The notes below the pieces were generated by a model that was given only the letters and a program-made list of their open reading frames with translations, searched no databases and was not told where the DNA came from. A program made the position numbers and the translations under genes. From NCBI GenBank assembly GCA_905234505.1, contig CAJOIA010000005.1:1-53326 (forward strand): DNA of 53,326 nt, read 5' to 3'. This stretch comes from an uncultured Selenomonadaceae bacterium (lineage in GTDB: Bacteria; Bacillota; Negativicutes; Selenomonadales; Selenomonadaceae). Below, piece after piece: positions 2,965 to 53,326 of this stretch (within the stretch, counting starts at the first letter, position 1; every line of letters begins with the position of its first letter).

Positions 2965-5511
2965 TCAAGCCCTTAGCTCTGCATTAAATATTTTTCTCAC
3001 CGAGTTTAAAATATCCTTGAAAGCCGCGTCCGCTTCTTCGTCCTTGAGTGTACGCTCGCTGGATTGAAATTTAATCGTAAACGCCAAACTTTTTTTGTCA
3101 GCTGAAATTCTATCGCCGGTGTACACGTCAAAAAGCGTCACGCTCTTAAAATCATTCCCCGCGTATTTAGCAATGACTTTTTCAATTTCGCCCGCCGAAA
3201 CATCACGATCAACCAGAATTGCCAAATCGCGCGTTATCGCAGGATATTTCGGCAAATTCTCAAATGCAAATTTTTTCGCCGTGCATTTAATGAGCGTCTC
3301 AATATCCGCCTCGAAAATATAAATCTTCTTGCCGATACCAAAAGATTCAGCAACCGCCGGATGAACTTCACCAACCGTAGCCAAAATCTCGCGACCTTTT
3401 TTGAAAATTGCCGTCTTGCCAGGATGCAACGCATAATGCGCGCCCGCCTCGACCGTGTAATTCAAAATCGACAACTGCGCGAAAAGTTCTTCGACAATGC
3501 CCTTAGCGTCATAAAAATCAACTTCAGCCGAATTTTGCGACCAACCTTTAGGGTCGCGCCGCCCCATTATCAAGCCAGCTAATTTTAAAACTTCGCGCGG
3601 CTGTTCAGTTATCGGCAATGCTTTAGGGAAAAATACAGGCGCTATCTCGAAAAGTCTAACGTCTTCATTTTTGCGGCTCAAATTTCGCGCAGCATTTTCC
3701 AATATCGAACCAATTAAATTCGTACGGAGCAGCGGATTTTCATATGGATTCATAATCGGCACTGCGCGACGCAATTCACTATCAGCCGGAATTTGCAATT
3801 TGTCAAAAGTTTCAACGCTGGTAAACGCAAACGAAATTTCTTCATTCAAGCCGAGCGCCGCCAGGATATTTTTAATTTTATCGGTGAAATTCTGAGTTTT
3901 GGATTGCCGCCCTTGCTGACTGCCTTTAGGCAAAGTGGCGGGAATTTTATCGTAGCCATAAATGCGCGCAATTTCTTCAGATAAATCTTCCATAATGGTA
4001 ACGTCATTTCGCCAATCTGGAACGGTCGCCTCATATGCAATAAATTCTTTAACGCCGCTACTGTCAATCAACTTGTCAAAAGTCTTAGTAAGCCCCGCCT
4101 GCGCGATATTCTTAGCGATCTTGCCAAAATGTTTAGCCGCTGTTGAAATTCTGTCAATCGCCTGCTCTGCGTCCATTTGCGCGCCAATGTCGCTAATATC
4201 AAAGCCCAAACTTTTCAGCACGTCAATAATTTCTTTGTCGCTGTAATTCGTGCCGAGTCGGTCGTTGATCTGCTTCGTGGTGAATTGAACTTTAACAGCT
4301 GATTTAGGATTTGGATAAATATCAACAATGCCTTTGCAAACTTTGCACGCGCCCATTTCCTGCAAAAGTTGAGCTGCCCTATCCAGCGCAATGACAGTTG
4401 CCTTTTCATTGACGCCGCGCTCAAATCTGCCCGACGCTTCAGAATGTAAACCAACTGCGCGACTTGTCCTGCGAATCGACGCCGCATTGAACGCCGCCGC
4501 TTCCAATACAACCGTCTTGGTCTTTTCGGTAATTTCAGTTTCAAAGCCACCCATTACGCCAGCTAAGCCCGCAGCTTTTTCCGCGTCAGCTATCACCAGT
4601 TCATCGCCCTTAGCCAATCTGTTTGAATCGTCAAGCGTGTGAAGTTGTTCACCCACCACCGAGCGCCGCGCATTTAAAACTTTGCCGACAATTTCATCAT
4701 AATCATAAGCGTGCATTGGCTGCCCAAGCTCAATCATTACAAAATTTGTCACGTCAACCACATTGTTAATCGCTCGAATGCCCGCGCCTTCCAAACGTTT
4801 TTGCAGCCATTCAGGCGAAGGTCCAAGTTTAACATCTGTCAGCACTCGCGCAGAAAACCGACTGCATAAATCCGGCGCGTCAATTTTAATTTCAATCATA
4901 TCGGCTGCTTTTTTTCCCGCGTCTTCGGTAACTTTAATTTCCGGAAAGTGCGGAGTCTTATTCAGTAAAACCGCCGCCTCACGAATTAAACCAAATACGC
5001 TGAAACAATCGCCGCGATTCGCCGTCAATTCAAATTCTAAAATATCATCGTCAAGCCCAAGCACTTCAGCAGCCGGAACTCCAATCGGCGTATCGGCAGG
5101 CAAAATATAAATACCGCTGGAATCGCCTTCAATCTTCAATTCGTCTGCACTGCACAGCATACCATTTGAAACCACGCCGCGCAATTTTCCTTTGGCAATT
5201 TTCTTCCCGCAGGGTAAATTCGCGCCAACCATAGCCACCGGTACAATATCGCCCGCCTTGACATTTTGCGCGCCCGTCACAATCTGAATCAATTCACCCG
5301 CGCCCAAGTCCATTTGGCAGATAAACATATGATCAGAATCGGGATGCTTAACAATTTCTGAAACTTTGCCGGTTACAACTTTTTCAAGTCCAGCGCCCGC
5401 GTGTATGACATTTTCTACCGCAATTCCCGCCATTGTAAATTTTTCCGCCAGCTCGTCCGCCGTGCAATCTATTTCAATGAAGTCTTTCAACCATTTTGTT
5501 GATACTTGCAT
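2965..5511 (-). CDS. pheT: Phenylalanine--tRNA ligase beta subunit
   Basis: 848-aa ORF with the tRNA-binding N-domain, B3/4, B5 and the C-terminal FDX-ACB domain. It follows pheS. Confidence 0.95.
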   Translation of the reverse strand: MQVSTKWLKDFIEIDCTADELAEKFTMAGIAVENVIHAGAGLEKVVTGKVSEIVKHPDSDHMFICQMDLGAGELIQIVTGAQNVKAGDIVPVAMVGANLPCGKKIAKGKLRGVVSNGMLCSADELKIEGDSSGIYILPADTPIGVPAAEVLGLDDDILEFELTANRGDCFSVFGLIREAAVLLNKTPHFPEIKVTEDAGKKAADMIEIKIDAPDLCSRFSARVLTDVKLGPSPEWLQKRLEGAGIRAINNVVDVTNFVMIELGQPMHAYDYDEIVGKVLNARRSVVGEQLHTLDDSNRLAKGDELVIADAEKAAGLAGVMGGFETEITEKTKTVVLEAAAFNAASIRRTSRAVGLHSEASGRFERGVNEKATVIALDRAAQLLQEMGACKVCKGIVDIYPNPKSAVKVQFTTKQINDRLGTNYSDKEIIDVLKSLGFDISDIGAQMDAEQAIDRISTAAKHFGKIAKNIAQAGLTKTFDKLIDSSGVKEFIAYEATVPDWRNDVTIMEDLSEEIARIYGYDKIPATLPKGSQQGRQSKTQNFTDKIKNILAALGLNEEISFAFTSVETFDKLQIPADSELRRAVPIMNPYENPLLRTNLIGSILENAARNLSRKNEDVRLFEIAPVFFPKALPITEQPREVLKLAGLIMGRRDPKGWSQNSAEVDFYDAKGIVEELFAQLSILNYTVEAGAHYALHPGKTAIFKKGREILATVGEVHPAVAESFGIGKKIYIFEADIETLIKCTAKKFAFENLPKYPAITRDLAILVDRDVSAGEIEKVIAKYAGNDFKSVTLFDVYTGDRISADKKSLAFTIKFQSSERTLKDEEADAAFKDILNSVRKIFNAELRA

Positions 5512-5639
5512 TTATTACGCTCCTTCAAATTTAATCGACATTTTTATAAGTTTTTCTTTCAATGATACGTGCTATATCTGCATTAAATTTTTTTGATAAA
5601 GCCGTCTACCTGTCATAAAAATCACGCTTTTTTTGGCAA

Positions 5640-6668
5640 TTAAAATTGATTTAGGAATCGAACATCATTTTCAAAGAACAGCCGCAAATCATCAATGGCG
5701 TATTTAATCATTGTCAAACGTTCGACGCCCATTCCAAAAGCAAAGCCGCTAACCGCATTGCTATCGTAGCCGCTCATTTTCAAAACGTCGGGATGCACTT
5801 CGCCCGCTCCGAGAATTTCAAGCCAGCCGCTGCCGTGACAAACTTTGCAATCACCCTTGCCGTGACAAATCGGACAAGAAACATCAATTTCAGTGCTCGG
5901 TTCAGTGAACGGGAAAAAGCTTGGGCGCAATCTGATTTGAGTATTTTCGCCAAAAAATTGCTTGCAGAAAAAATCAAGCGTGCCCTTTAAATCGGCAAAA
6001 GTAATTCCCTTGTCGATAACAAGCCCTTCAATCTGCGTGAACATTGGCGCGTGGCTTGCGTCGTAATCGTCGCGGCGATAAACTCTGCCAGGCGCTATCA
6101 TACGAATTGGAGTATTGGGCGGATTTTTTTGCATAGTTCGAGCCTGTACCGGCGAAGTTTGCGTACGCAATAAAATTTCGTTGGTTATGTAAAATGAATC
6201 TTGAGTATCTCGCGCAGGGTGATCTTTGGGCAAATTGAGCGCCTCAAAATTAAAATAATCAGTTTCGACTTCCGGACCTTCCTCAACGCTGTAGCCCATT
6301 TGAATAAAAATTTCCTTGACGCGGTTTAAAGTCAAAGTGAGCGGGTGCAAATGCCCGCAATGAATTTTTCTGCCAGGAAGTGTCACGTCGATTTTTTCAG
6401 ACGCCAATTTATTTTGTAAATCTTTAGCTTTGAGTTCAGCATTTTTATCAGCGATTAACTGCTCGATTTGAGCGCGCGCTTCGTTAGCGATTTTGCCAAT
6501 TTTAGGACGCTCCTCCGCGCTGAGTTGGCTCATACCACGCAATAAACCGGTGAGATCGCCTTTTTTGCCCAAAATTTTAACGCGGACGTTGTCGAGTTCT
6601 TTTAAATCTGAAGCCGCGCTTATCATTGTTGCCGCTGATTCGCGCAGTTGTTGTATTTGTCGTTCCAT
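5640..6668 (-). CDS. pheS: Phenylalanine--tRNA ligase alpha subunit
   Basis: Class II aaRS motifs are present ([25 protein letters not shown]). The start is taken at [10 protein letters not shown] (ATG 6668), because the longer ORF would overlap the divergent promoter. Confidence 0.9.
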
Positions 6669-6705
6669 TTTTGTAGCAAAATAATTTATCATAAGGCGGG
6701 CGATA

Positions 6706-6734
6706 TTGCAAGCCATTATTCGCAATGATATAAT
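6706..6734 (+). promoter_or_regulatory. sigma70 promoter of the U32 gene
   Basis: TTGCAA (6706-6711), 17-nt spacer ending in TGa, then TATAAT (6729-6734); 35 nt upstream of the ATG at 6769. Confidence 0.55.
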
Positions 6735-6768: not shown

Positions 6769-8694
6769 ATGGGATTAACTCGTGAGTCGGTTGAACTTTT
6801 AGCACCGGCGGGTACATTTGAAGCATTTAAGGCGGCAATTGACGCAGGCGCGGACGCAGTTTATTTGGGCGGGAAAAATTTCAATATGCGCGTCCACAGT
6901 AACAAATTTAATCTGGATAATGACGAATTGAAAGCCGCCGTGGAATATGCGCACGACAGGAACGTTAAACTGGACGTGACGATTAATAATTTAATGAGCG
7001 TTGAGGAAATCGAGCCGCTTGAAAAATATCTGCGTTTTTTGGATGAAATTAAAATTGACGCGGCGATTGTCCAAGATTTTGCAGTGATTCAGCTGATTAA
7101 AAAACTCGGATTGAGCATTCCAATTCACGCTTCAGTTATGATGAACATTAACAGTATACCAGCGGTTGAATTGCTGAAAAAATTTGGGATTAAGCGCGTG
7201 GTTGTCAGTCGAGAATTGAGTTTTGAAGCGGTGAAAAATCTGCGCGAGGCAACCGGCATTGAAACGGAATATTTTATACACGGCGATATGTGCGTGGCGG
7301 TTTCTGGGCAATGCATACATTCAGGTATAACATTTGGGCAGAGCGGTAATCGCGGGCGTTGTCTGAAACCGTGTCGCTGGGCGTATAAATTTATTGACGA
7401 AAAAACCGGCGCAATTTTAGACGATACCAGTTACAAATTGGCAATGGGCGATATGTGCCTGCTCAGGAATATTCCGGAATTGATTCAGAGCGGCATTTAT
7501 TCGTTTAAAATTGAAGGGCGAATGCGCCCGCCGGAATTTATTCACAGGATTGTATCGACATACAGGCAGGCGATTGACGCTTACATTGCCGACCCAACCG
7601 GCTATAGTCTTGACGAAAATTTGTGGCGAGATTTTTTCGATAAGCGCGTGCGGAAATTTACTACGCTCTGCGCATTTGCTCCGCCGACTAAGAAAGATAT
7701 TGGCTTGAGTGGGAAACGTGAGCCGCGATTTTTCAGTGAAGGCGTTATCGAAACGAAATTTGACGATGCGAGCGTGGCGAAAATTTTTGTCGGAGCTGAG
7801 CCAATAAAAAAGTCCTGCGCGAAACCTGATTTGACTGTTAGAGTTTCGACACTGGACGCGGCTAAATCTGCCATTGATAACGGCGCAGATTTGATTTATG
7901 TTGGCGGCGAAAGTTTTAAACCAAATAAGCCAATGACGCTGGCTGAATTGGAAACTGCCGCTGAAATTGCGCATAAATCGAACGTGAAAATTATTTTGAA
8001 TACGCCGCGCGTTACTCGCGACAGTTATTTGAATGAGCTTGCCGAACTTTTAATGCGGCTGAAAAAAATTGATGGCGTGATGGTTAGCAATTTGGGCTCG
8101 CTGAATGTTGCTAAAAAATTTTCCAATTTGCCGATTTACGCCGACAGTTCATTTAACTTATTCAATAATGTGGCGGCTGAATTTCTGCGCGAATTGGGAG
8201 TAGTGCGGGCGACGGCGTCGCTTGAGCTGAGTTTTGCGCAGGTTAAGAGCGTTGTTGAAAAATCTGCATTGCCGATAGAAATTATCATTCACGGGGCGAC
8301 TGAGTCAATGATTAGCGAGCATAACCTGGTTAAGTTCTATTATCCGAATTTCAATGAATTTGCGACGCCGGAAATTTTGAATGAGCATTTTGCATTGGTG
8401 GATAGCGCGGGCGAAGTTCATTCGATACGCCTTGACCAGTTTGATTACAGTCACATTTATTTTGCTAAAGATTTATGTATGTTGCCGTACTTGCAGAAAT
8501 TCGTGGGAGCGGCGGCACTTAGGATTGAGGCGCAGGATTATTCGCCAGAAGTTACCGCTTTTGTGACCAAAATTTATCGTGCAGGATTGGACGGCAAAGA
8601 TTTAACAGTGGATTTTGAAATGCTGAAAAAAAATACTCCGCGTGAATTGGGGAGCGGAGTTTACAAATTTGCTGAGAGTAAGAACTCGATCTAA
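6769..8694 (+). CDS. Long two-module U32-family protein (peptidase U32 / RlhA-TrhP-type Fe-S hydroxylase family)
   Basis: 641 aa. There are two U32-like modules (ELLAPAGTFEAFKAAIDAGADAVYLGG and VSTLDAAKSAIDNGADLIYVGG) and a Cys cluster (GDMCVAVSGQCIHSG...RGRCLKPCRW). Confidence 0.8.
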   Translation: MGLTRESVELLAPAGTFEAFKAAIDAGADAVYLGGKNFNMRVHSNKFNLDNDELKAAVEYAHDRNVKLDVTINNLMSVEEIEPLEKYLRFLDEIKIDAAIVQDFAVIQLIKKLGLSIPIHASVMMNINSIPAVELLKKFGIKRVVVSRELSFEAVKNLREATGIETEYFIHGDMCVAVSGQCIHSGITFGQSGNRGRCLKPCRWAYKFIDEKTGAILDDTSYKLAMGDMCLLRNIPELIQSGIYSFKIEGRMRPPEFIHRIVSTYRQAIDAYIADPTGYSLDENLWRDFFDKRVRKFTTLCAFAPPTKKDIGLSGKREPRFFSEGVIETKFDDASVAKIFVGAEPIKKSCAKPDLTVRVSTLDAAKSAIDNGADLIYVGGESFKPNKPMTLAELETAAEIAHKSNVKIILNTPRVTRDSYLNELAELLMRLKKIDGVMVSNLGSLNVAKKFSNLPIYADSSFNLFNNVAAEFLRELGVVRATASLELSFAQVKSVVEKSALPIEIIIHGATESMISEHNLVKFYYPNFNEFATPEILNEHFALVDSAGEVHSIRLDQFDYSHIYFAKDLCMLPYLQKFVGAAALRIEAQDYSPEVTAFVTKIYRAGLDGKDLTVDFEMLKKNTPRELGSGVYKFAESKNSI

Positions 8695-8710
8695 ATGACT
8701 TACGTAATTA

Positions 8711-8880
8711 AGAGGCGCGCAAGGACGCGCGCCGTCCGCGCCATTTTCAGGATTGAAAATTTGCGCGGCTGTATGTTATTTTTTAATCGCTCTTGTCTGA
8801 TCTCGCGGGAGCAATCCTACTTTCGTTTTTCTTTCTTTGCCTGGCGTTTCTTTATTTTTACAAAAAGAAAGAAATGCCGA
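8711..8880 (-). repeat. Mosaic structured intergenic repeat, copy A (element orientation is the minus strand)
   Basis: The reverse complement shares exact blocks with the copies at 15719-15879 and 22722-22896. These are tcggcatttctttctttttgtaaaaataaagaaacgcc, attgctcccgcgagatcagacaagag and cagccgcgcaaattttcaatcctgaaaatggcgcgga, plus a terminal GC hairpin. The element starts 3 nt after the fliG stop. Confidence 0.85.
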
Positions 8881-8882
8881 CA

Positions 8883-9911
8883 TTACACAAGCATATCATC
8901 ATTCTTACCGCGCGAGATAACAATTTCGCCTCTGTCTTCAAGCGACCGGATAATATTAACAACCTTCATTTGCGCTTCTTCGACGTCACGAATTTTAACC
9001 GGTCCCATATATGAAAGTTCCTCTTTGAGCATATCGGCGGCACGTTTCGACATATTCTTGAAGATTTTATTGGTAACATCGTCGGTAGTAGCCTTCATTG
9101 CCAGCGATAAATCTTTGGTATCGACTTGACGCAAAACCAACTGCATTGAGCGGTCGTCCAAAAGTACAACGTCTTCGAATACGAACATAAGTTTCTTAAT
9201 TTCTTCAGCGAGTTCTGGATCATCAACTTCGAGCGATTCAACGATAGCTTTTTCAGTGGTACGGTCTACGCGGTTCAAAACTTCGACAATAGCAGGAACA
9301 CCGCCAGCTGTTGTAAAGTCTTGCGTCAACATTGAAGAAATCTTGCGCTCTAAAACGCGCTCTACTTCACGAATAACATCCGGCGAAGTTCTATCCATCA
9401 TTGCAATTCTTTTCGCAACGTCAGCTTGCATTTCTGTTGATAAGCCGGTCATAATAATTGCGGCTTGGTCCGGCTCAAGATACGCCATTACCAGCGCTAT
9501 TGTCTGCGGGTGCTCATTTTGGATAAAGTTTAAAAGCTGAGACGGATCAATTTTGCGTAGGAAATCGAATGGGCGAACCTGCAAGCTGGTTGTTAAGCGG
9601 TTCAAAATGCCCATCGCTCTATCAGCACCAAGCGCTTTCTCCAAAACATTTTGAGCGTATTCCAAACCGCCGGTTGAAATATAATCATTCGCCATAGCCA
9701 TTTGATAAAATTCACTGATAACGGCGGCTTTTTGCTCAGCGCTGACCTGCTTGTTATTGGCAATTTCCAGCGTGATGCTTTCAATTTCGTCGTCGTCAAG
9801 ATGTTCAAAAAGTTTAGCAGCATATTCGCCGCCTACCGCGATAAAAAGTATGGCGGCTTTTTCGTGTGCAGTCATATCCCGCGAATCGCCGTACATATCA
9901 TCTCTTGGCAT
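8883..9911 (-). CDS. fliG: Flagellar motor switch protein FliG
   Basis: 342 aa with full-length FliG-like sequence. RBS AAGGAGGA. Sits in a fliE-fliF-fliG context. Confidence 0.95.
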   Translation of the reverse strand: MPRDDMYGDSRDMTAHEKAAILFIAVGGEYAAKLFEHLDDDEIESITLEIANNKQVSAEQKAAVISEFYQMAMANDYISTGGLEYAQNVLEKALGADRAMGILNRLTTSLQVRPFDFLRKIDPSQLLNFIQNEHPQTIALVMAYLEPDQAAIIMTGLSTEMQADVAKRIAMMDRTSPDVIREVERVLERKISSMLTQDFTTAGGVPAIVEVLNRVDRTTEKAIVESLEVDDPELAEEIKKLMFVFEDVVLLDDRSMQLVLRQVDTKDLSLAMKATTDDVTNKIFKNMSKRAADMLKEELSYMGPVKIRDVEEAQMKVVNIIRSLEDRGEIVISRGKNDDMLV

Positions 9912-11679: not shown

Positions 11680-11985
11680 TTATACCTGCATGCGCATAAT
11701 CTCTTGATACGCAGAGGTCGCTCGGTTTCTTAGCTGAAGTGTCAGCTGTATGGCAATTTCCGCTTTTTGCGCCGCCACTACCACTTGCGATATGTCTTCA
11801 ACTCTGCCTGCCGCCAATGCCGCATTTAATTTATCGGATTCAAGCTGAAGTTCGTTAGTCTTTTTCACGGCGTCAATCAAAACTTCGCCAAACGTTTTTA
11901 TCGGTTCGTCGACTTGCTTTGATTCGCCAAGATGGCTATGTGCGCTCATTTTTACTGGCGTCAATTCCAGTGGTGTTATCTCCAT
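11680..11985 (-). CDS. fliE: Flagellar hook-basal body protein FliE
   Basis: The C-terminus ...AYQEIMRMQV is typical of FliE. The start is taken at the ATG at 11985, after AAGAGGAGTGA. Confidence 0.85.
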   Translation of the reverse strand: MEITPLELTPVKMSAHSHLGESKQVDEPIKTFGEVLIDAVKKTNELQLESDKLNAALAAGRVEDISQVVVAAQKAEIAIQLTLQLRNRATSAYQEIMRMQV

Positions 11986-12133
11986 CTCATCACTCCTCTT
12001 AAAAAATTCACATAACACATTAATAATAGCTAAAAAAATTAAAACCGATAAAAGCCGCAATTATTATAACAGCTTGAAAAATAATTGCCATAGAAATTTT
12101 GATTTTATATACGTTGAAAACTAAAAAAATTTT

Positions 12134-12583
12134 TTAACGTCCAATTTCCAGAGCTTTTAACGCCATAGTCTTAGCCGCGTTAATTGCCGCTGTATTCGCT
12201 TCATATGCGCGGTGAGCCGTTATCATGTCGACCATTTCAGTGACGATATTAACATTTGGCTTTTCGACGTAACCGTCAGCATTAGCGTCGGGGTGACCAG
12301 GATCGTAAACCATTGGACCTTGTTCGGTATCTTCAACGATTGAAACTGCGCGCACGCCTTCACCGACAGATTTGCCCGCGCCGGTTGCCTTTTGAAGAGC
12401 TGCTTCAAAGCTCATTGGTTGACGTTCACGCGGATTGAAAACAACGTAGCGCCTGTGATAAGCGCCGCCGTCCGCCGTGCGTGTGGTATTTGCATTGGCG
12501 ATATTATTTGAAATTACGTCCATTCTCAAGCGTTCAGCCGTCAAGCCTGACGCGGACGTATCAATTCCTAAAAACATACCCAT
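12134..12583 (-). CDS. flgC: Flagellar basal-body rod protein FlgC
   Basis: Contains SASGLTAERLRMDVISNNIANANTTRT and a rod C-terminal domain. RBS AAAGGAG. Confidence 0.95.
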   Translation of the reverse strand: MGMFLGIDTSASGLTAERLRMDVISNNIANANTTRTADGGAYHRRYVVFNPRERQPMSFEAALQKATGAGKSVGEGVRAVSIVEDTEQGPMVYDPGHPDANADGYVEKPNVNIVTEMVDMITAHRAYEANTAAINAAKTMALKALEIGR

Positions 12584-14921: not shown

Positions 14922-15704
14922 ATGAATTTCAATTTGATAAAATTTAACACGGACATTGGCAAAACTAAACCGGAAAATATTGTTCACACGGAAAACGCCT
15001 GCCCATTTTGTGATGTGAAACATTTGACAAATATTTTAGACACGGACGGCGATATTATTTTTCTGCGCAATAAATATCCGGTGATTGAGGGCGCTGATTT
15101 ATTTGTGCTGATTGAGGGCAAGGACTGCGATATTGATATGCCGAAATATAGTCGTGAGCATATGCGCCGCGTGATTCGGATGGGAATTAAGCATTGGAAT
15201 GAACTTTTGAATTGCGGCAAGTATGAGGAAGTTTTATTTTTTAAAAATTTTGGTCCGATGTCTGGCGGCACGATTAAACACCCGCACATGCAGATTGTTG
15301 GATTTCCGAAGTTAAAATCTGAATTACTTTTTGAAGTTGAGGAATTGCGCGGGCTGGTCATTGCTAAGGAAAATGGCGTTGAGTTGAATGTATCGAATTG
15401 TCCGCGCGTAGGTTTCGGCGAATTGAATGTTGTTTGCGAGAGTGGCGGCGATATTGATACACTTGCTGATTTTTTGCAGATTGGCATACATTATCTGATG
15501 AATTTTTTCCGCAAGAGTTTAAGCAGTTATAATATTTTTTTCTATCGTCGCGCAGGAATTATTTATGCGAAAATGATGCCGCGCTTTGCAACTTCGCCGT
15601 ATTTTGTCGGGTACAATGTACATTTTCTGCCGCGCAATATTCCGCAGATTGCCGATGAAGTTTATAAAATTTATTTCAAAGAGAAGCTCGTGGTTTTCGA
15701 TTAA
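14922..15704 (+). CDS. HIT-superfamily, GalT-like nucleotidyltransferase (DUF4931-like)
   Basis: Contains a CPFC zinc knuckle and the HPHMQ (HxHxQ) motif of the GalT branch. The start is taken at the ATG at 14922, after GGAG. Confidence 0.65.
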   Translation: MNFNLIKFNTDIGKTKPENIVHTENACPFCDVKHLTNILDTDGDIIFLRNKYPVIEGADLFVLIEGKDCDIDMPKYSREHMRRVIRMGIKHWNELLNCGKYEEVLFFKNFGPMSGGTIKHPHMQIVGFPKLKSELLFEVEELRGLVIAKENGVELNVSNCPRVGFGELNVVCESGGDIDTLADFLQIGIHYLMNFFRKSLSSYNIFFYRRAGIIYAKMMPRFATSPYFVGYNVHFLPRNIPQIADEVYKIYFKEKLVVFD

Positions 15705-15718
15705 TTTATCTTTCATGA

Positions 15719-15879
15719 TTTGCATTTCTTTCTTTTAGTAAAGAAAGAAACGCTGGCAAAGAAAGAAAACGCAATTTAATTGGTTCCGCGAGATCATCCA
15801 AGAGTGTGAGCGGAAAGGAAAGCAGCCGCGCAAATTTTCAATCCTGAAAATGGCGCGGAGCCGCCCATCCTTGGGCGGC
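15719..15879 (+). repeat. Mosaic structured intergenic repeat, copy B
   Basis: Shares gcatttctttctttt..aaagaaagaaacgc, ggcaaagaaagaaaacg, ccgcgagatca and cagccgcgcaaattttcaatcctgaaaatggcgcgga with copies A and C. Its terminal hairpin is gccgccc-atcctt-gggcggc. Confidence 0.85.
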
Positions 15880-15916
15880 TACCAATGTACTTTTCAGTTT
15901 TGGGAGGGTTAATAAT

Positions 15917-17662: not shown

Positions 17663-17890
17663 ATGAAGACAGCAAGTTTCAAAGCTATTGATTTGACGGC
17701 AGGATTAGGCGCCAGTTTAACAGCAGGTACTTTAGCCGCCTGTGGAGCTTTCGGAGCGGCAAATGCAATTGGAATTGCGGAACAGCTTGCCAATAAAATT
17801 AAAATTATTATGGATACGCCATTATTGAACAGCGATGGCAGCTTAAATGAAGAGTCCGATAAAATATTAGCTTTTGATGACGCCAAATGA
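17663..17890 (+). CDS. Hypothetical small Gly/Ala-rich protein (75 aa)
   Basis: Codon usage resembles neighbouring genes. TTGACA-N16-TAAACT lies upstream (17597-17624). The RBS is weak. Its 3' end overlaps the convergent methyltransferase gene by 24 nt. Confidence 0.35.
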   Translation: MKTASFKAIDLTAGLGASLTAGTLAACGAFGAANAIGIAEQLANKIKIIMDTPLLNSDGSLNEESDKILAFDDAK

Positions 17891-18640
17891 AATATTGCTG
17901 TGTTTGCCGCCTTCCGCGATTTTGAAACCGAGCCTCGCAAATTCAAGACTGCGCGAATTTTCTTTCATAACAACAAGTCGCCGCGCAACTCTGCAAGCTT
18001 CACGGACAGAATCAGCGTCAATGGGTCTGTGGTCAGCAACGGGACGAATCGGATTAATGCCGGAACTTTTATTCAGCGCGTGGCGAAACATCGGATCGAA
18101 ATAAACCACGTCAAAAGAATTATCGGCGGCGCTCTTCAAAAAATCTGCGTAGTTGGCAGTTACAACTTTGACGCGGCGCATTGCCTCAATCACCGGCGGC
18201 GTATCGTCAACAAAATTTTTCATACCAAAACGAACAACTTCAGCCAACGCCGGATTAATTTCCAGCGCAGTAACTTTGCCCGAATTGCCGACAATAAAAC
18301 TTTCGACAATTGCATCACTGCCCAAGCCCAGCGTACAGTCAAGAATTTTATCACCGGCTTTAATTTGGGCGGCTTCAATCAAGCGGTCGCCTTCGCCTTG
18401 TCGCAAATTTTTTATCCGCAAATGCGCGGTATTTGGATGGAAATATAAAATTCCTTCAGACGTCCAAATCACCAGCGCATTTTTTTTCGCCAATAAAATA
18501 TTTTCCGCGTCATACATTTTCATAAGCGCGTCGATACCAAAATCTTTGCGCTCAACAAAATTTAAGCCAAGTTTTTCAGCGGTAATTTTAGCCAAATTCA
18601 CGGTTTCAAATTTAGGTTTGCGAATGGTCGTGACAATCAT
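17867..18640 (-). CDS. Class I SAM-dependent methyltransferase, RsmJ-like
   Basis: Contains motif I DCTLGLGSDAI and VVYFDPMF. The start is taken at the ATG at 18640, after GAGGTG; the longer ORF has no support. Confidence 0.75.
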   Translation of the reverse strand: MIVTTIRKPKFETVNLAKITAEKLGLNFVERKDFGIDALMKMYDAENILLAKKNALVIWTSEGILYFHPNTAHLRIKNLRQGEGDRLIEAAQIKAGDKILDCTLGLGSDAIVESFIVGNSGKVTALEINPALAEVVRFGMKNFVDDTPPVIEAMRRVKVVTANYADFLKSAADNSFDVVYFDPMFRHALNKSSGINPIRPVADHRPIDADSVREACRVARRLVVMKENSRSLEFARLGFKIAEGGKHSNISFGVIKS

Positions 18641-20634: not shown

Positions 20635-20639
20635 AAAAA

Positions 20640-20687
20640 GTGACATGTGACAAATTCACTTATCACATATCACCTATCACTTATCAC
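20640..20687. repeat. Heptad hairpin element, GTGA/TCAC subfamily
   Basis: Sequence: gtgacatgtgac, loop aaat, then tcactta tcacata tcaccta tcactta tcac. The stop TGA of the convergent gene at 20684 lies in the last unit. Confidence 0.7.
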
Positions 20688-22198: not shown

Positions 22199-22714
22199 AT
22201 GATTTTGATTGAAGGCAAAAGGCTCAAACTTCGTCGCGCAGAAATTACCGATTTAGATTATATTTTCAATCTGCAATACAAACCGGAAAATATTAAATTT
22301 ATTTATCCCTTCAGCAAAGATTTTCACACGGCGATTATTAATTCTGACAACGCGGAGAAAATGGACGTCATCATTGAAGAAATTGAAACCGGTGAAGCTG
22401 TTGGATATTTTATGCTTTGTGAGCTGAATGATATTGGTATTGAGTGGCGACACGTTATCATTGACAAGAAAGGCATGGGATACGGGCGCGAAAGTTTAAA
22501 CTTGCTTATGCAATGGAGCTTCGAAATTAAAAAATTTCATCGCGGTTGGCTCGATTGTAAAATTTATAATGAAGTTGCTCTACATTTGTATGAAAGTTCA
22601 GGGCTGCAGCGGGAAGGAATTTCGCGCGAATGTATTTTAATCAATGGCGTTTATGAAGATTTGATTGTGCTCAGTATCCTTGACAGAGAATATTTTGCGT
22701 TGAAAAAATTATAA
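22199..22714 (+). CDS. GNAT-family N-acetyltransferase
   Basis: Contains a RimJ/RimL-like GNAT core (IDKKGMGYGRESL...). ATG at 22199 follows GGGGTGA. Confidence 0.8.
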   Translation: MILIEGKRLKLRRAEITDLDYIFNLQYKPENIKFIYPFSKDFHTAIINSDNAEKMDVIIEEIETGEAVGYFMLCELNDIGIEWRHVIIDKKGMGYGRESLNLLMQWSFEIKKFHRGWLDCKIYNEVALHLYESSGLQREGISRECILINGVYEDLIVLSILDREYFALKKL

Positions 22715-22721
22715 CTTTATA

Positions 22722-22896
22722 TCGGCATTTCTTTCTTTTTGTAAAAATAAAGAAACGCCTGCGCGGTTTGCGAAAGCAAAGCGTGCTCTTTAGTACAAAG
22801 AAAGAAAAACGAATTTTAATTGCTCCCGCGAGATCAGACAAGAGTGATAATTTTCAATCCTTGAAAATGGCGCGGGAAGCGCGCGTCCTGCGCGCT
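22722..22896 (+). repeat. Mosaic structured intergenic repeat, copy C
   Basis: The first 38 nt are identical to copy A. It carries a private insert, tgcgcggtttgcgaaagcaaagcgtgctctttagta. The attgctcccgcgagatcagacaagag block is identical to copy A. Its terminal hairpin is agcgcgc-gtcct-gcgcgct. Confidence 0.85.
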
Positions 22897-22943
22897 TCAT
22901 TTATGTATAATGTTTAAATTAAAATTATGTCTAATGTTTAAAC

Positions 22944-22985
22944 TAAAAAAATCCGCCCCCATTTCGGAACGGATCTTTTTTTATA
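22944..22985. terminator. Bidirectional terminator-like hairpin 3' of the flavodoxin gene
   Basis: AAAAAAA-atccg...cggat-cTTTTTTT. The stem is short, but it is flanked by A and T runs. Confidence 0.4.
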
Positions 22986-40714: not shown

Positions 40715-41671
40715 TTGAAATCTGGATTTATCGCGGTTATCGGGCGTCCGAACGTGGGAAAGTCGACGTTGATTAATAAGATCATTGGGCAGAAAATAGC
40801 GATTATGTCAGACAAGCCGCAAACTACGCGCAGTCGCATTCAATGCATTTTGACTCAGGACGACGCGCAATTTATTTTTTTAGATACGCCTGGCATTCAC
40901 AAGCCGAAATTCAAACTAGGCGAATATATGTTGAAGGCGGCGGAAAGCACATTGCAGGAAGTTGACGTTATTTTTTTCGTTATCGATGCGACTGCCAGCT
41001 TAGGGAATAGTGGCAAGGGTATAGGGAATAGTAAAACCACTAATCCCTCTTCACTAGTCCCTAACCCCTTAATAGGCGGAGGCGAAAAATATATTCTTGA
41101 GCGGCTAAATTCTACTACGCAACCGGTTATTTTGGTTATTAATAAAATTGATTTACTGAATCGCGCAGAACTTTTACCGATAATTGCGGCTTATTCGGAG
41201 CGTTACAATTTCGCGGCGACTGTTCCAATTAGCGCGATTGAAGGCAGTAATGTTGACGAACTTTTGATTGAGGCTAAAAAATTTTTGCCCGAAGGTCCGA
41301 AATATTATCCAGCCGATATGGTCACCGACCAGCCCGAGCGTTTGATTATCTCTGAAATTATTCGCGAGAAAATTTTGCACGTGACCGAAGATGAGGTGCC
41401 TCATTCGGTGGCGGTTGATATTGAAGAAATTACTTCGCGCAGAAAAGATTTGACGTACATTCGCGCGACAATTTATGTTGAGCGAGATTCTCAAAAAGGT
41501 ATTCTAATTGGCAAAAATGGCGGACTTTTGAAAGGCGTTGGTCAAAATGCGCGTCCAGAAATTGAAATGCTTTTAGGCACAAAAGTTTTTCTGGATTTAT
41601 GGATTAAAGTCAAACGCGATTGGCGAAATTCTGTCGGCGCGCTTCAAAGTTTTGGGCTAGGCGAAAATTAG
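40715..41671 (+). CDS. era: GTPase Era (carries a 26-residue repeat-encoded insertion)
   Basis: G1 motif GRPNVGKST, G3 DTPG, G4 NKID and a KH domain are all present. TTG start follows GGGAGGGA. Confidence 0.95.
   Translation: MKSGFIAVIGRPNVGKSTLINKIIGQKIAIMSDKPQTTRSRIQCILTQDDAQFIFLDTPGIHKPKFKLGEYMLKAAESTLQEVDVIFFVIDATASLGNSGKGIGNSKTTNPSSLVPNPLIGGGEKYILERLNSTTQPVILVINKIDLLNRAELLPIIAAYSERYNFAATVPISAIEGSNVDELLIEAKKFLPEGPKYYPADMVTDQPERLIISEIIREKILHVTEDEVPHSVAVDIEEITSRRKDLTYIRATIYVERDSQKGILIGKNGGLLKGVGQNARPEIEMLLGTKVFLDLWIKVKRDWRNSVGALQSFGLGEN
41000..41076 (+). repeat. Heptad-periodic palindromic element inserted in frame in era
   Basis: Sequence: ttaggga atagtgg caagggt ataggga atagt, loop aaaac, then cactaat ccctctt cactagt ccctaac cccttaatagg. 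The first 33 nt differ at only 3 positions from the intergenic copy at 12608. Confidence 0.8.
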
Positions 41672-46836: not shown

Positions 46837-46910
46837 TTAGTGATTAGTGATTAGGGGTTAGTGGCTAGTGATTTTTTTCTAGTCACTATTCACTATTCAC
46901 TATTCACTAA
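46837..46910. repeat. Heptad-periodic palindromic intercistronic element (archetype)
   Basis: Sequence: ttagtga ttagtga ttagggg ttagtgg ctagtga, loop tttttttc, then tagtcac tattcac tattcac tattcac taa. It lies between the murC-ddl stop (46913) and the ftsQ RBS. Confidence 0.85.
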
Positions 46911-52832: not shown

Positions 52833-52898
52833 TTTAGTGGTTAGTGATTGGTGGTTAGTGGTTGGTGTAAAAATCACTACCCACTATTCACTATTCAC
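52833..52898. repeat. Heptad-periodic palindromic intercistronic element
   Basis: Sequence: tttagtgg ttagtga ttggtgg ttagtgg ttggtg, loop taaaaa, then tcactac ccactat tcactat tcac. It contains the TAG stop (52891-52893) of the upstream acyltransferase gene. Confidence 0.8.
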
Positions 52899-53326
52899 TT
52901 TTCCCTCTCTTGACTTTGCGCATTTCGGGCGGCGTATTCCAGCGCTTTTGAAACCACAGCCACTGAGTAGGATTTTCGCGAATAACCTGCTCCAAAATCC
53001 GCGTCATTTTTTCGGTAAATCTGAACAAATCGCCGTCCGCGTCGCCGGTATCTTCAAAGTGCATAACTTCAAAAATTTTAACCAAGTGCCGCCCGTTCGG
53101 CTGACGAATTATAAACGCGGGCAAAACCGGCGAATTGAATTTTTTGGAAAAGACAGCCGGTCCCATTGGTGTTGACGCAATTTTACCAAGAAAATTTATA
53201 AATGCGCCGCCTGGTCCGCCATCTTGATCTGCAAGGAAACCTAAAATTTTGCCCTTCTTCAAAGCCCGTCCTGCTGATAATAATTCGCTCGTGCCGCGAT
53301 TGAATATTTCTACGTGAATTGTCGCC
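52891..53326 (-). CDS. Lipid A biosynthesis (LpxL/HtrB-like) acyltransferase, C-terminal part; 5' end lies beyond the window
   Basis: The ORF is open to the window edge. It contains FLADQDGGPGGAFINFLGKIASTPMGPAVFSKKF...NPTQWLWFQKRW, typical of the lauroyl/myristoyl acyltransferase family. Confidence 0.7.
   Translation of the reverse strand, partial: ATIHVEIFNRGTSELLSAGRALKKGKILGFLADQDGGPGGAFINFLGKIASTPMGPAVFSKKFNSPVLPAFIIRQPNGRHLVKIFEVMHFEDTGDADGDLFRFTEKMTRILEQVIRENPTQWLWFQKRWNTPPEMRKVKRGKSE

Follow-up and report, generated by a model that had tools for sequence, protein, structure and literature searches.

A lineage-specific family of interspersed hairpin repeats at gene ends in uncultured Selenomonadaceae, with features of a two-way terminator cassette

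Hairpins of the enterobacterial REP family are common within about 15 nt of a stop codon. REP elements are reported to act as context-dependent 3ʹ-UTR terminators and as barriers that stabilise upstream mRNA (bioRxiv 10.64898/2026.03.23.713779). In Streptococcus pneumoniae, the small interspersed elements BOX, RUP and SPRITE are found only in the species and its closest relatives, BOX being limited to S. pneumoniae, S. mitis and S. suis (PMC3049150). These elements have extensive secondary structure and are co-transcribed with their neighbours, new insertions are rare, and BOX is modular, built as boxA-boxB-boxC; all three were judged parasitic by the authors of that paper (PMC3049150). For the Negativicutes, a limited search of the literature and databases returned no described interspersed structured repeat family.

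The DNA analysed here, termed the window, is one entire contig of 53,326 nt from an uncultured member of the Selenomonadaceae, and it carries three copies (A, B and C) of a repeat family. The family is real and previously uncatalogued, and consists of short modular hairpin repeats located 3ʹ of genes in an uncultured Selenomonadaceae group. Copy A occupies 8695-8882 on the minus strand, copy B 15717-15892 on the plus strand and copy C 22719-22898 on the plus strand; all three were delimited by alignment, copy A also by gene context, and were matched by a covariance model with E values of 6e-5, 9e-5 and 2e-3, respectively. Copy A lies between the stop codons of fliG (8883-8885, minus strand) and a U32 peptidase gene (8692-8694, plus strand). 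Because it fills the 188-nt gap between them wholly, its true extent is slightly greater than the 8711-8880 of the first-pass annotation, which had described the locus as one of three copies of a structured mosaic repeat; that description is borne out, since A, B and C can be aligned from end to end. The same annotation placed copy A 3 nt past the fliG stop in fliG orientation, and the exact common block does begin 2-3 nt past that stop on the fliG strand. Copy B is flanked by a gene of the DUF4931 family (stop 15702-15704) and by hemL (start 15917), both on the plus strand. Copy C follows a GNAT acetyltransferase gene (stop 22712-22714); beyond it, and outside the repeat, come a canonical bidirectional terminator (A7-hairpin-T7, 22945-22982) and then a convergent flavodoxin gene, so that copy C falls within the GNAT 3ʹ UTR.

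The copies share long exact blocks, as originally noted. A 38-mer common to A and C occurs exactly twice in the window (8843-8880, minus; 22722-22759, plus), as does a 37-mer common to A and B (8735-8771, minus; 15823-15859, plus), and neither occurs twice in shuffled sequence (0 in shuffles). A repeat finder links A with C over 41 nt (98%) and 30 nt (97%), and A with B over 37 nt (100%). Copy C differs by an insert of 29-33 nt and by the missing 5ʹ arm of one hairpin, the clamp of H2.

Read in the direction leading away from the nearest stop codon, the parts follow one another in a constant order in every copy: H1, R2, an optional M2, H2, H3 and a T-rich tail. H1 is a long T-rich/A-rich hairpin with a pyrimidine arm (TTTCTTTCTTT) and a purine arm (AAAGAAAGAAA), and R2 is a second purine tract (CAAAGAAAG; also written CAAAGAAAGAAAA). 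M2, a 30-nt module (ATTGCTCCCGCGAGATCAGACAAGAG...), is confined to the window species and characterises its long form. H2 is a two-tier hairpin with a GC clamp, an AT-rich inner stem and, in the window, the loop AATCCT, while H3 is a GC hairpin of 8-10 bp with a TCC(T) loop, followed by the short T-rich tail. In copy A, all on the minus strand, these parts are H1 at 8843-8878 (GGCATTTCTTTCTTTTT GT AAAAATAAAGAAACGCC, pyrimidine arm against purine arm), R2 at 8824-8839 (CAAAGAAAGAAAAACG, U-rich when read on the plus strand), M2 at 8786-8815 (ATTGCTCCCGCGAGATCAGACAAGAGCGAT), H2 at 8736-8768 (CCGCGC AA ATTTTC AATCCT GAAAAT G GCGCGG, GC clamp and AT inner stem), H3 at 8714-8733 (GGCGCGCG TCCT TGCGCGCC) and the H3 tail at 8695-8713 (TCTTAATT). 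Copy B, on the plus strand, has H1 at 15722-15753, R2 at 15757-15771, M2 at 15779-15808, H2 at 15826-15858 and H3 at 15859-15880. In copy C, also on the plus strand, H1 (22724-22759) is followed by a 29-nt hairpin insert, module X (22760-22788), and then by R2 (22796-22811), M2 (22819-22848), an H2 without its 5ʹ clamp arm (22849-22875) and H3 (22876-22898).

The arms of the terminal hairpin read GGCGCGCG/TGCGCGCC in A, (A)GCCGCCCA/TGGGCGGC(T) in B and (GA)AGCGCGCG/TGCGCGCT(TC) in C. The motif (A/G)TCC(T) had been reported for both hairpin loops and is present in both, as TCCT, TCCT and TCC in the H3 loops of A, B and C and within AATCCT in the inner loop. Copy A folds better than its shuffles on both strands (z = -4.35 and -3.93). 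The TTTCTTTCTTT and AAAGAAAGAAA tracts had been proposed to allow alternative pairings; they can do so, and the minimum-energy fold of copy B is such an alternative, but the purine tract is better understood as the U-tract of an H2 terminator on the other strand (see below). H1 starts 3-18 nt past the stop codon, and at 7 of the 9 junctions examined the distance is 10 nt or less.

Homologues of the window proteins with 63-78% identity are labelled Selenomonadaceae, and a more distant one (66%) is from Quinella; sample names with study codes such as GLEN20 and WILK20 point to a gut or rumen metagenome origin. Loci for comparison, numbered here with the prefix L, were gathered by exact-protein look-up and comprise assemblies of the same species, lineages whose U32 peptidase is 93%, 92% and 87% identical, and outgroups at 78-82%. 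At each of the four orthologous junctions, relatives in the 87-93% range have an element that keeps the order of parts but is shorter (about 110-125 nt), the fourth junction (site D) being known from another assembly of the window species about 6 kb past the window end. The copy there is interrupted by a contig end and reads ...AATTTTCAATCCTGAAAATGGCGCGG GAGCGCTCA TCCT TGAGCGCTC TTTTTTTT; in two relatives, the orthologous site is flanked by a gene for a hybrid histidine kinase and, convergent with it, an NlpC/P60 gene. The long form, with M2 and an AATCCT-loop H2, is present at 4 of 4 sites in the window species (partially so at site D) and at none in the relatives. The relatives vary in both GC-rich hairpins, with H2 sequences TAGTCAC/GTGACTA, TAGTTG/CAACTA and TAGTCGAC/GTCGACTA, and H3 sequences GGCGCTCA/TGAGCGCC and GGCCGCCA/TGGCGGCC; across all types, the H2 loops read ATCAC, TTCCG and, in the window, AATCCT. 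A search with a covariance model, suggested at the outset as a check for homologues, was made with a model built from five relatives' short forms alone; it recovered A, B and C, each on the strand expected, and had no further match in 315 kb. The window species has four copies in about 59 kb, which by extrapolation suggests a copy number of the order of 100 genome-wide; REP/BIME elements number tens to hundreds of copies per genome.

The outgroups lack the element at these junctions: between fliG and U32 they have either a canonical terminator or another type of hairpin, built on heptamers, DUF4931 and hemL are 6 nt apart, and the GNAT|flavodoxin gap contains the canonical terminator alone. 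In outgroup L129, a single canonical terminator hairpin stands directly 3ʹ of the fliG stop, in the position of copy A.

The stems change in a coordinated manner. Pairing in H3 is complete (100%) across nine distinct copies, and 5 of the 8 pairs are altered on both sides, which none of 500 shuffles reached; controls with slid alignments collapse. Over the entire element, 92.9% of cells are paired in 12 distinct copies and 17 of 29 pairs are altered on both sides, in an alignment that was fitted to the model and hence leans towards it. The changes in the terminal hairpin, originally called compensatory on three copies, are compensatory in this larger set. Throughout, UCC is invariant in the H3 loop while the stem around it varies.

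Conservation can be set against the divergence at four-fold degenerate sites of fliG and the U32 peptidase gene, which is 0.19-0.40 among element-bearing lineages. Between L124 and L126, site B shows a single difference in 111 positions, where the divergence of 0.26 at the four-fold sites of the adjacent hemL predicts 29 (P about 1e-13). The L117 and L126 elements at site A are separated by 12 differences in 106 positions versus 29 expected, and 11 of the 12 fall within six double-sided changes of stem pairs, three in the inner stem of H2 and three in H3. Apart from one base of the H1 loop, the two do not differ in H1, R2 or the linkers, and the sequence immediately beyond H3 cannot be aligned. 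The unpaired parts are far more conserved than synonymous sites. Between very close strains, differences occur in clustered patches; for example, copy A of L119 has CGAATTTTAATTG where the window copy A has CGAAAGTAGGATTG, and the L119 version is that of window copy C. Module X likewise changes place, standing after H1 in window copy C and within the H3 loop at site D of relatives, with one compensating change of its own between the two. Together, the stem covariation, the conserved linkers and the patches point to long-term retention under constraint, combined with exchange of short blocks between copies. Copies persist for long periods at the same junctions while gene conversion swaps short blocks among them, giving rise to the mosaic pattern.

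The reading judged probable, if only a little beyond an even chance, is that this lineage-specific interspersed mosaic repeat serves as a two-way terminator and 3ʹ-end cassette. The element would be co-transcribed with its flanking genes and would act as a pair of intrinsic terminators set back to back, each working in one direction and also capping RNA 3ʹ ends. H3 and its tail would stop or cap transcripts arriving from the H1 side, and the H2 complement, with that of R2 (UUUUCUUUCUUUG) directly behind it, would do the same for transcripts of a convergent gene. Within an operon, as for copy B, attenuation rather than a full stop would be expected. H3 has a predicted folding energy of -14 to -18 kcal/mol and precedes a T-rich tail (T8 in the fourth copy). 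The complement of H2 reaches -22 to -25 kcal/mol in the short forms and is directly followed by UUUUCUUUCUUUG; by our own count, the complement of R2 has 4-7 U among its first 8 bases in all short forms. A role of UUUUCUUUCUUUG as the U-tract behind the complement of H2 would explain why the purine tract R2 is well conserved. The H3 hairpins of A and C are the top terminator-like matches in scans of the window, and a terminator scanner flags H3 plus tail in window copies A and C and in L126_A, L130_C and L124_B. The same unit is weak as a terminator in window copy B, L124_A and L117_A, and several H3 tails are weakly U-rich (2-5 U in 8). H2 escapes a simple scanner because of its internal loop.

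On the question of which strand is read, placement is more informative. Choosing the strand by folding energy or wobble pairs was rejected, as the energies are equal on both strands and the wobble evidence is split: the common type of H1 shows A.C on the element strand, a mismatch that becomes G.U on the other, but in H3, M2 and module X it is the element strand that carries the G.U pairs. An argument that the element always lies behind a co-oriented gene was also set aside, because it is uninformative at convergent junctions; of the four sites that provide placement evidence, only B and C inform orientation. At site B, the element strand is the sense strand for both neighbours and the hemL start lies 37 nt beyond H3. 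This leaves no room for a promoter between H3 and hemL, so that hemL must be read through the element. The tail of the window copy at this site is U-poor, and L125 lacks the 3ʹ arm of H3, where a 15-nt deletion in its copy (17810-17937) has taken out the arm just upstream of hemL; the loss fits selection against termination inside the hemL operon. Site C has the element ahead of the canonical terminator, in the stretch that follows the GNAT stop. With that terminator already in place, another is not needed there, which counts against the terminator reading. Sites A and D are convergent junctions without any other terminator. The terminator model leaves H1, the invariant UCC of the H3 loop and the near-perfect conservation of short unpaired linkers unexplained.

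Alternatively, the repeat could be a selfish, non-autonomous mobile element without host function, REPIN-like or derived from an IS200/IS605 palindrome; a transposase encoded elsewhere would then recognise its hairpins in single-stranded DNA. The family is multi-copy and limited to one clade, outgroups lack it at the same sites, and the insertion at site B is clean, from stop codon to ribosome-binding site. Furthermore, the 29-nt module X is nested at different positions in different copies, and the element has hairpins near both ends and no terminal inverted repeats, like relatives of IS200/IS605. Contig ends also fall inside elements in 4 of about 27 cases (the ends of L127, L128 and L131 and the start of L166); however, these breaks are at hairpin centres, and palindromes alone can cause them. 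It appears that short-read assemblies break at the repeats, or simply at the palindromes within them. A mobile element is nevertheless considered unlikely: occupancy does not differ at any site among lineages diverged by 0.2-0.4 at four-fold sites, sequence conservation is far above that of neutral sites, and Pfam matches in about 150 kb of annotated neighbouring genes include no transposase or RAYT domain. The first-pass annotation could match the repeat to no MITE family, and the features of a MITE are indeed missing. All inverted repeats within the elements are local hairpins that leave the ends unjoined, and no target-site duplication is seen when the empty L132 is compared with the filled L124 at DUF4931|hemL or with L130 at GNAT|flavodoxin, where flanks have diverged and a very short duplication could be missed.

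The element could also be more than a repeated terminator, namely a conserved functional nucleic-acid module in which the invariant UCC/GGA loop is read by a specific protein or RNA and a triple helix of the Y-R-R arm protects transcript ends or shapes the DNA; the arm would consist of the U-rich/A-rich hairpin and the second purine tract, which the other strand presents as a pair of U-rich tracts with a single A-rich one. This is quite improbable; if true, it would provide a bacterial counterpart of triplex RNA stability elements at many gene ends. There is a slighter likelihood that the element strand yields a regulatory RNA acting in cis or trans, borne in or derived from a 3ʹ UTR, whose CU-rich loops (UCCU, UCCG, AAUCCU) would pair with Shine-Dalgarno sequences or bind a specific protein. 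C-rich loops aimed at ribosome-binding sites are typical of Firmicutes small RNAs, H2, H3 and the tail together are shaped like a small RNA that ends in a terminator, UCC persists while 5 of 8 stem pairs change around it, and the linkers are conserved far beyond neutral expectation. However, a four-base H3 loop is poor for pairing, the H2 loops vary by type, the neighbouring genes share no functional theme, and the proposal has neither promoter nor processing support. A structure at the level of DNA has an equally slight likelihood: H1 is an inverted repeat capable of forming a cruciform, R1 and R2 form a purine mirror repeat that could adopt an intramolecular triplex (H-DNA), and gyrase or nucleoid proteins would attach to the GC palindromes at the meeting point of convergent transcription. 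BIME-2 elements bind gyrase in E. coli, both strands of the repeat fold equally, 3 of the 4 sites are convergent junctions, and the Y-R-R arrangement with its AAAGAAA core is retained in all variants. Against this, the G.U pairs of M2, module X and the closing pair of H3 would be mismatches in one arm of the DNA, the T-rich and A-rich flanks suit RNA terminators better, and both the non-B form and the protein binding are putative, predicted from sequence. The suggestion made in the first-pass annotation, that GGA loops on the complement are bound by proteins of the CsrA/Rsm type, fared worst. Such an RNA would be a sponge or a CsrA-controlled element. The complement of H3 does read A(A/C)GGAC and that of the window H2 CAGGAUUG, both with GGA in a hairpin loop, the motif is invariant in H3, and at the convergent sites A and D the complement falls in the 3ʹ UTR of the opposing gene. 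However, the complement is antisense to both neighbours at B and lies behind the canonical terminator at C, so that the GGA strand should not be transcribed at two of the three window sites. The element shows no consistent promoter, Rfam matches at E <= 10 include no CsrB/Rsm family, the window has no CsrA-like ORF, the relatives' H2 loops lack GGA, and most of the loops concerned have four bases. CsrB and RsmZ resemble the repeat in that a three-base loop motif (GGA, which the repeat has on its complement) is conserved in several of their hairpins, but the present unit has two or three such motifs, no promoter of its own and no Rfam match, and thus differs from CsrB, RsmY and RsmZ, which possess their own promoter and terminator and many GGA loops on the transcribed strand. 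Binding by CsrA is therefore highly improbable.

Database searches returned no further members. Rfam 15 gave no match at gathering thresholds for the entire window, in keeping with the initial failure to match the repeat to an RNA family, and for copies A and B at E <= 10 it gave only chance-level miRNA and sRNA matches, far below gathering scores. Searching genome contigs with the pattern CCGCGAGATCANNCAAGAG, which proved too short, returned 114 stretches, none near other motifs of the element. One uncultured gammaproteobacterial genome (contigs CAVZIJ010000002/3) carries at least 10 copies of the 17-base CCGCGAGATCANNCAAGAG (L002, L017, L023, L028-L030, L033, L052, L053 and L072), presumably an unrelated repeat family of its own. 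In JGI metagenomes, the H2 pattern had no match, and the 4 matches to the M2 pattern were taken as chance, as three are GC-rich (0.60-0.65) and none has an H3 hairpin. Scans of IMG/VR with M2, H1 and H3 patterns found no real member; the H3-like matches were in GC-rich phages and one low-GC contig. The latter, the viral contig IMGVR_UViG_3300041402_000761 (GC about 0.4), has GCGCGCG TCCG TGCGCGC followed by an A-run at both ends (L136 88-105; L162 8095-8112), which equals a short-form H3, with no other part of the element nearby. A blastn comparison with plasmids gave no match. Within the element, a promoter inside M2 on the complement was rejected as inconsistent, being found in copy C only, and a small ORF running through it (8695-9129, plus strand) was rejected because orthologues differ in length by amounts that are not always multiples of three. 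The missing partner genes and the lack of a common theme among flanking genes led to the dismissal of an integron attC site, a retron and a riboswitch.

Other intergenic features of these genomes were recorded alongside the repeat. A second kind of hairpin is built of tandem heptamers, such as (TAGTGAT)n facing (ATCACTA)n, often with a T-run. It is found in the window at 46839-46908, 52850-52906, 20638-20675 (flagged as terminator-like) and 41040-41069, and at the fliG|U32 junction of outgroups, in the place of copy A, at L163 11927-12017 and L164 11927-11996 (GGCAGTA units in L164). In L129, an 80% relative, the fliG|U32 gap is 569 nt long (11927-12495) and contains, besides the canonical terminator, a promoter-like site (TTGACT-17-TAAAAT), repeats (CTTTAGTCGTG) and a terminator-like end, with no Rfam match; it may encode an unknown small RNA. 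The pheS|pheT junction (window 2965-6725) is tight in the window and carries varied inserted genes in relatives: a 311-aa MmeI_TRD/MmeI_C protein, a NUMOD4 homing-endonuclease-like gene or two small ORFs (L124 7917-8852, L126 7914-8849, L164 8085-8705 and L129 7069-7741).

The repeat adds a new interspersed structured family for the Negativicutes, and its evolution is unusual for such repeats. Four junctions stay occupied while synonymous sites diverge by 20-40%, and stem flips that compensate one another go together with nearly unchanged linkers and with block exchange between copies. If the reading as a two-way terminator is true, gene ends in this lineage would have been rewired by a portable cassette, which would aid the annotation of transcription units in genomes from rumen metagenomes. 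On the practical side, the hairpins coincide with contig breaks in several assemblies.

The terminator reading invites comparison with canonical bidirectional terminators, which likewise have a GC-rich hairpin that is A-rich on one side and T-rich on the other and are found at convergent junctions. In the present family, however, two adjacent hairpins would serve the two directions (H2 with R2, and H3 with its tail), and the unit is 110-190 nt long, is repeated around the genome and carries the additional parts H1, M2 and module X. Like REP/BIME elements, the repeats combine GC-rich imperfect palindromes (here H2 and H3) with other short motifs into mosaics, of which common blocks recur at four extragenic sites, and like them they stand after stop codons, between convergent genes or within operons. 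TAG/CTA flanks the inner stem of the short-form H2, although the GTAG of the REP foot tetranucleotide occurs in some copies only. Unlike REP/BIME elements, the family shows no sequence similarity to REP, its host is a Negativicute rather than a proteobacterium, no RAYT transposase is seen in the Pfam matches over about 150 kb, a long AT-rich pyrimidine/purine hairpin and a purine tract are part of the unit, and the order H1-R2-H2-H3 is fixed, whereas REP/BIME elements alternate inverted palindromic units. BOX differs in its variable number of boxB units and RUP in its terminal inverted repeats; BOX, RUP and SPRITE have no known sequence relation to the present family, which is conserved well beyond neutral expectation at orthologous sites. 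REP/BIME and BOX/RUP/SPRITE are the closest kinds of element, and the repeat shares the lifestyle of both, though not their sequences. It is distinguished from REP/BIME and BOX by its fixed four-part order, its pyrimidine/purine hairpin and a stronger conservation of both site and sequence.
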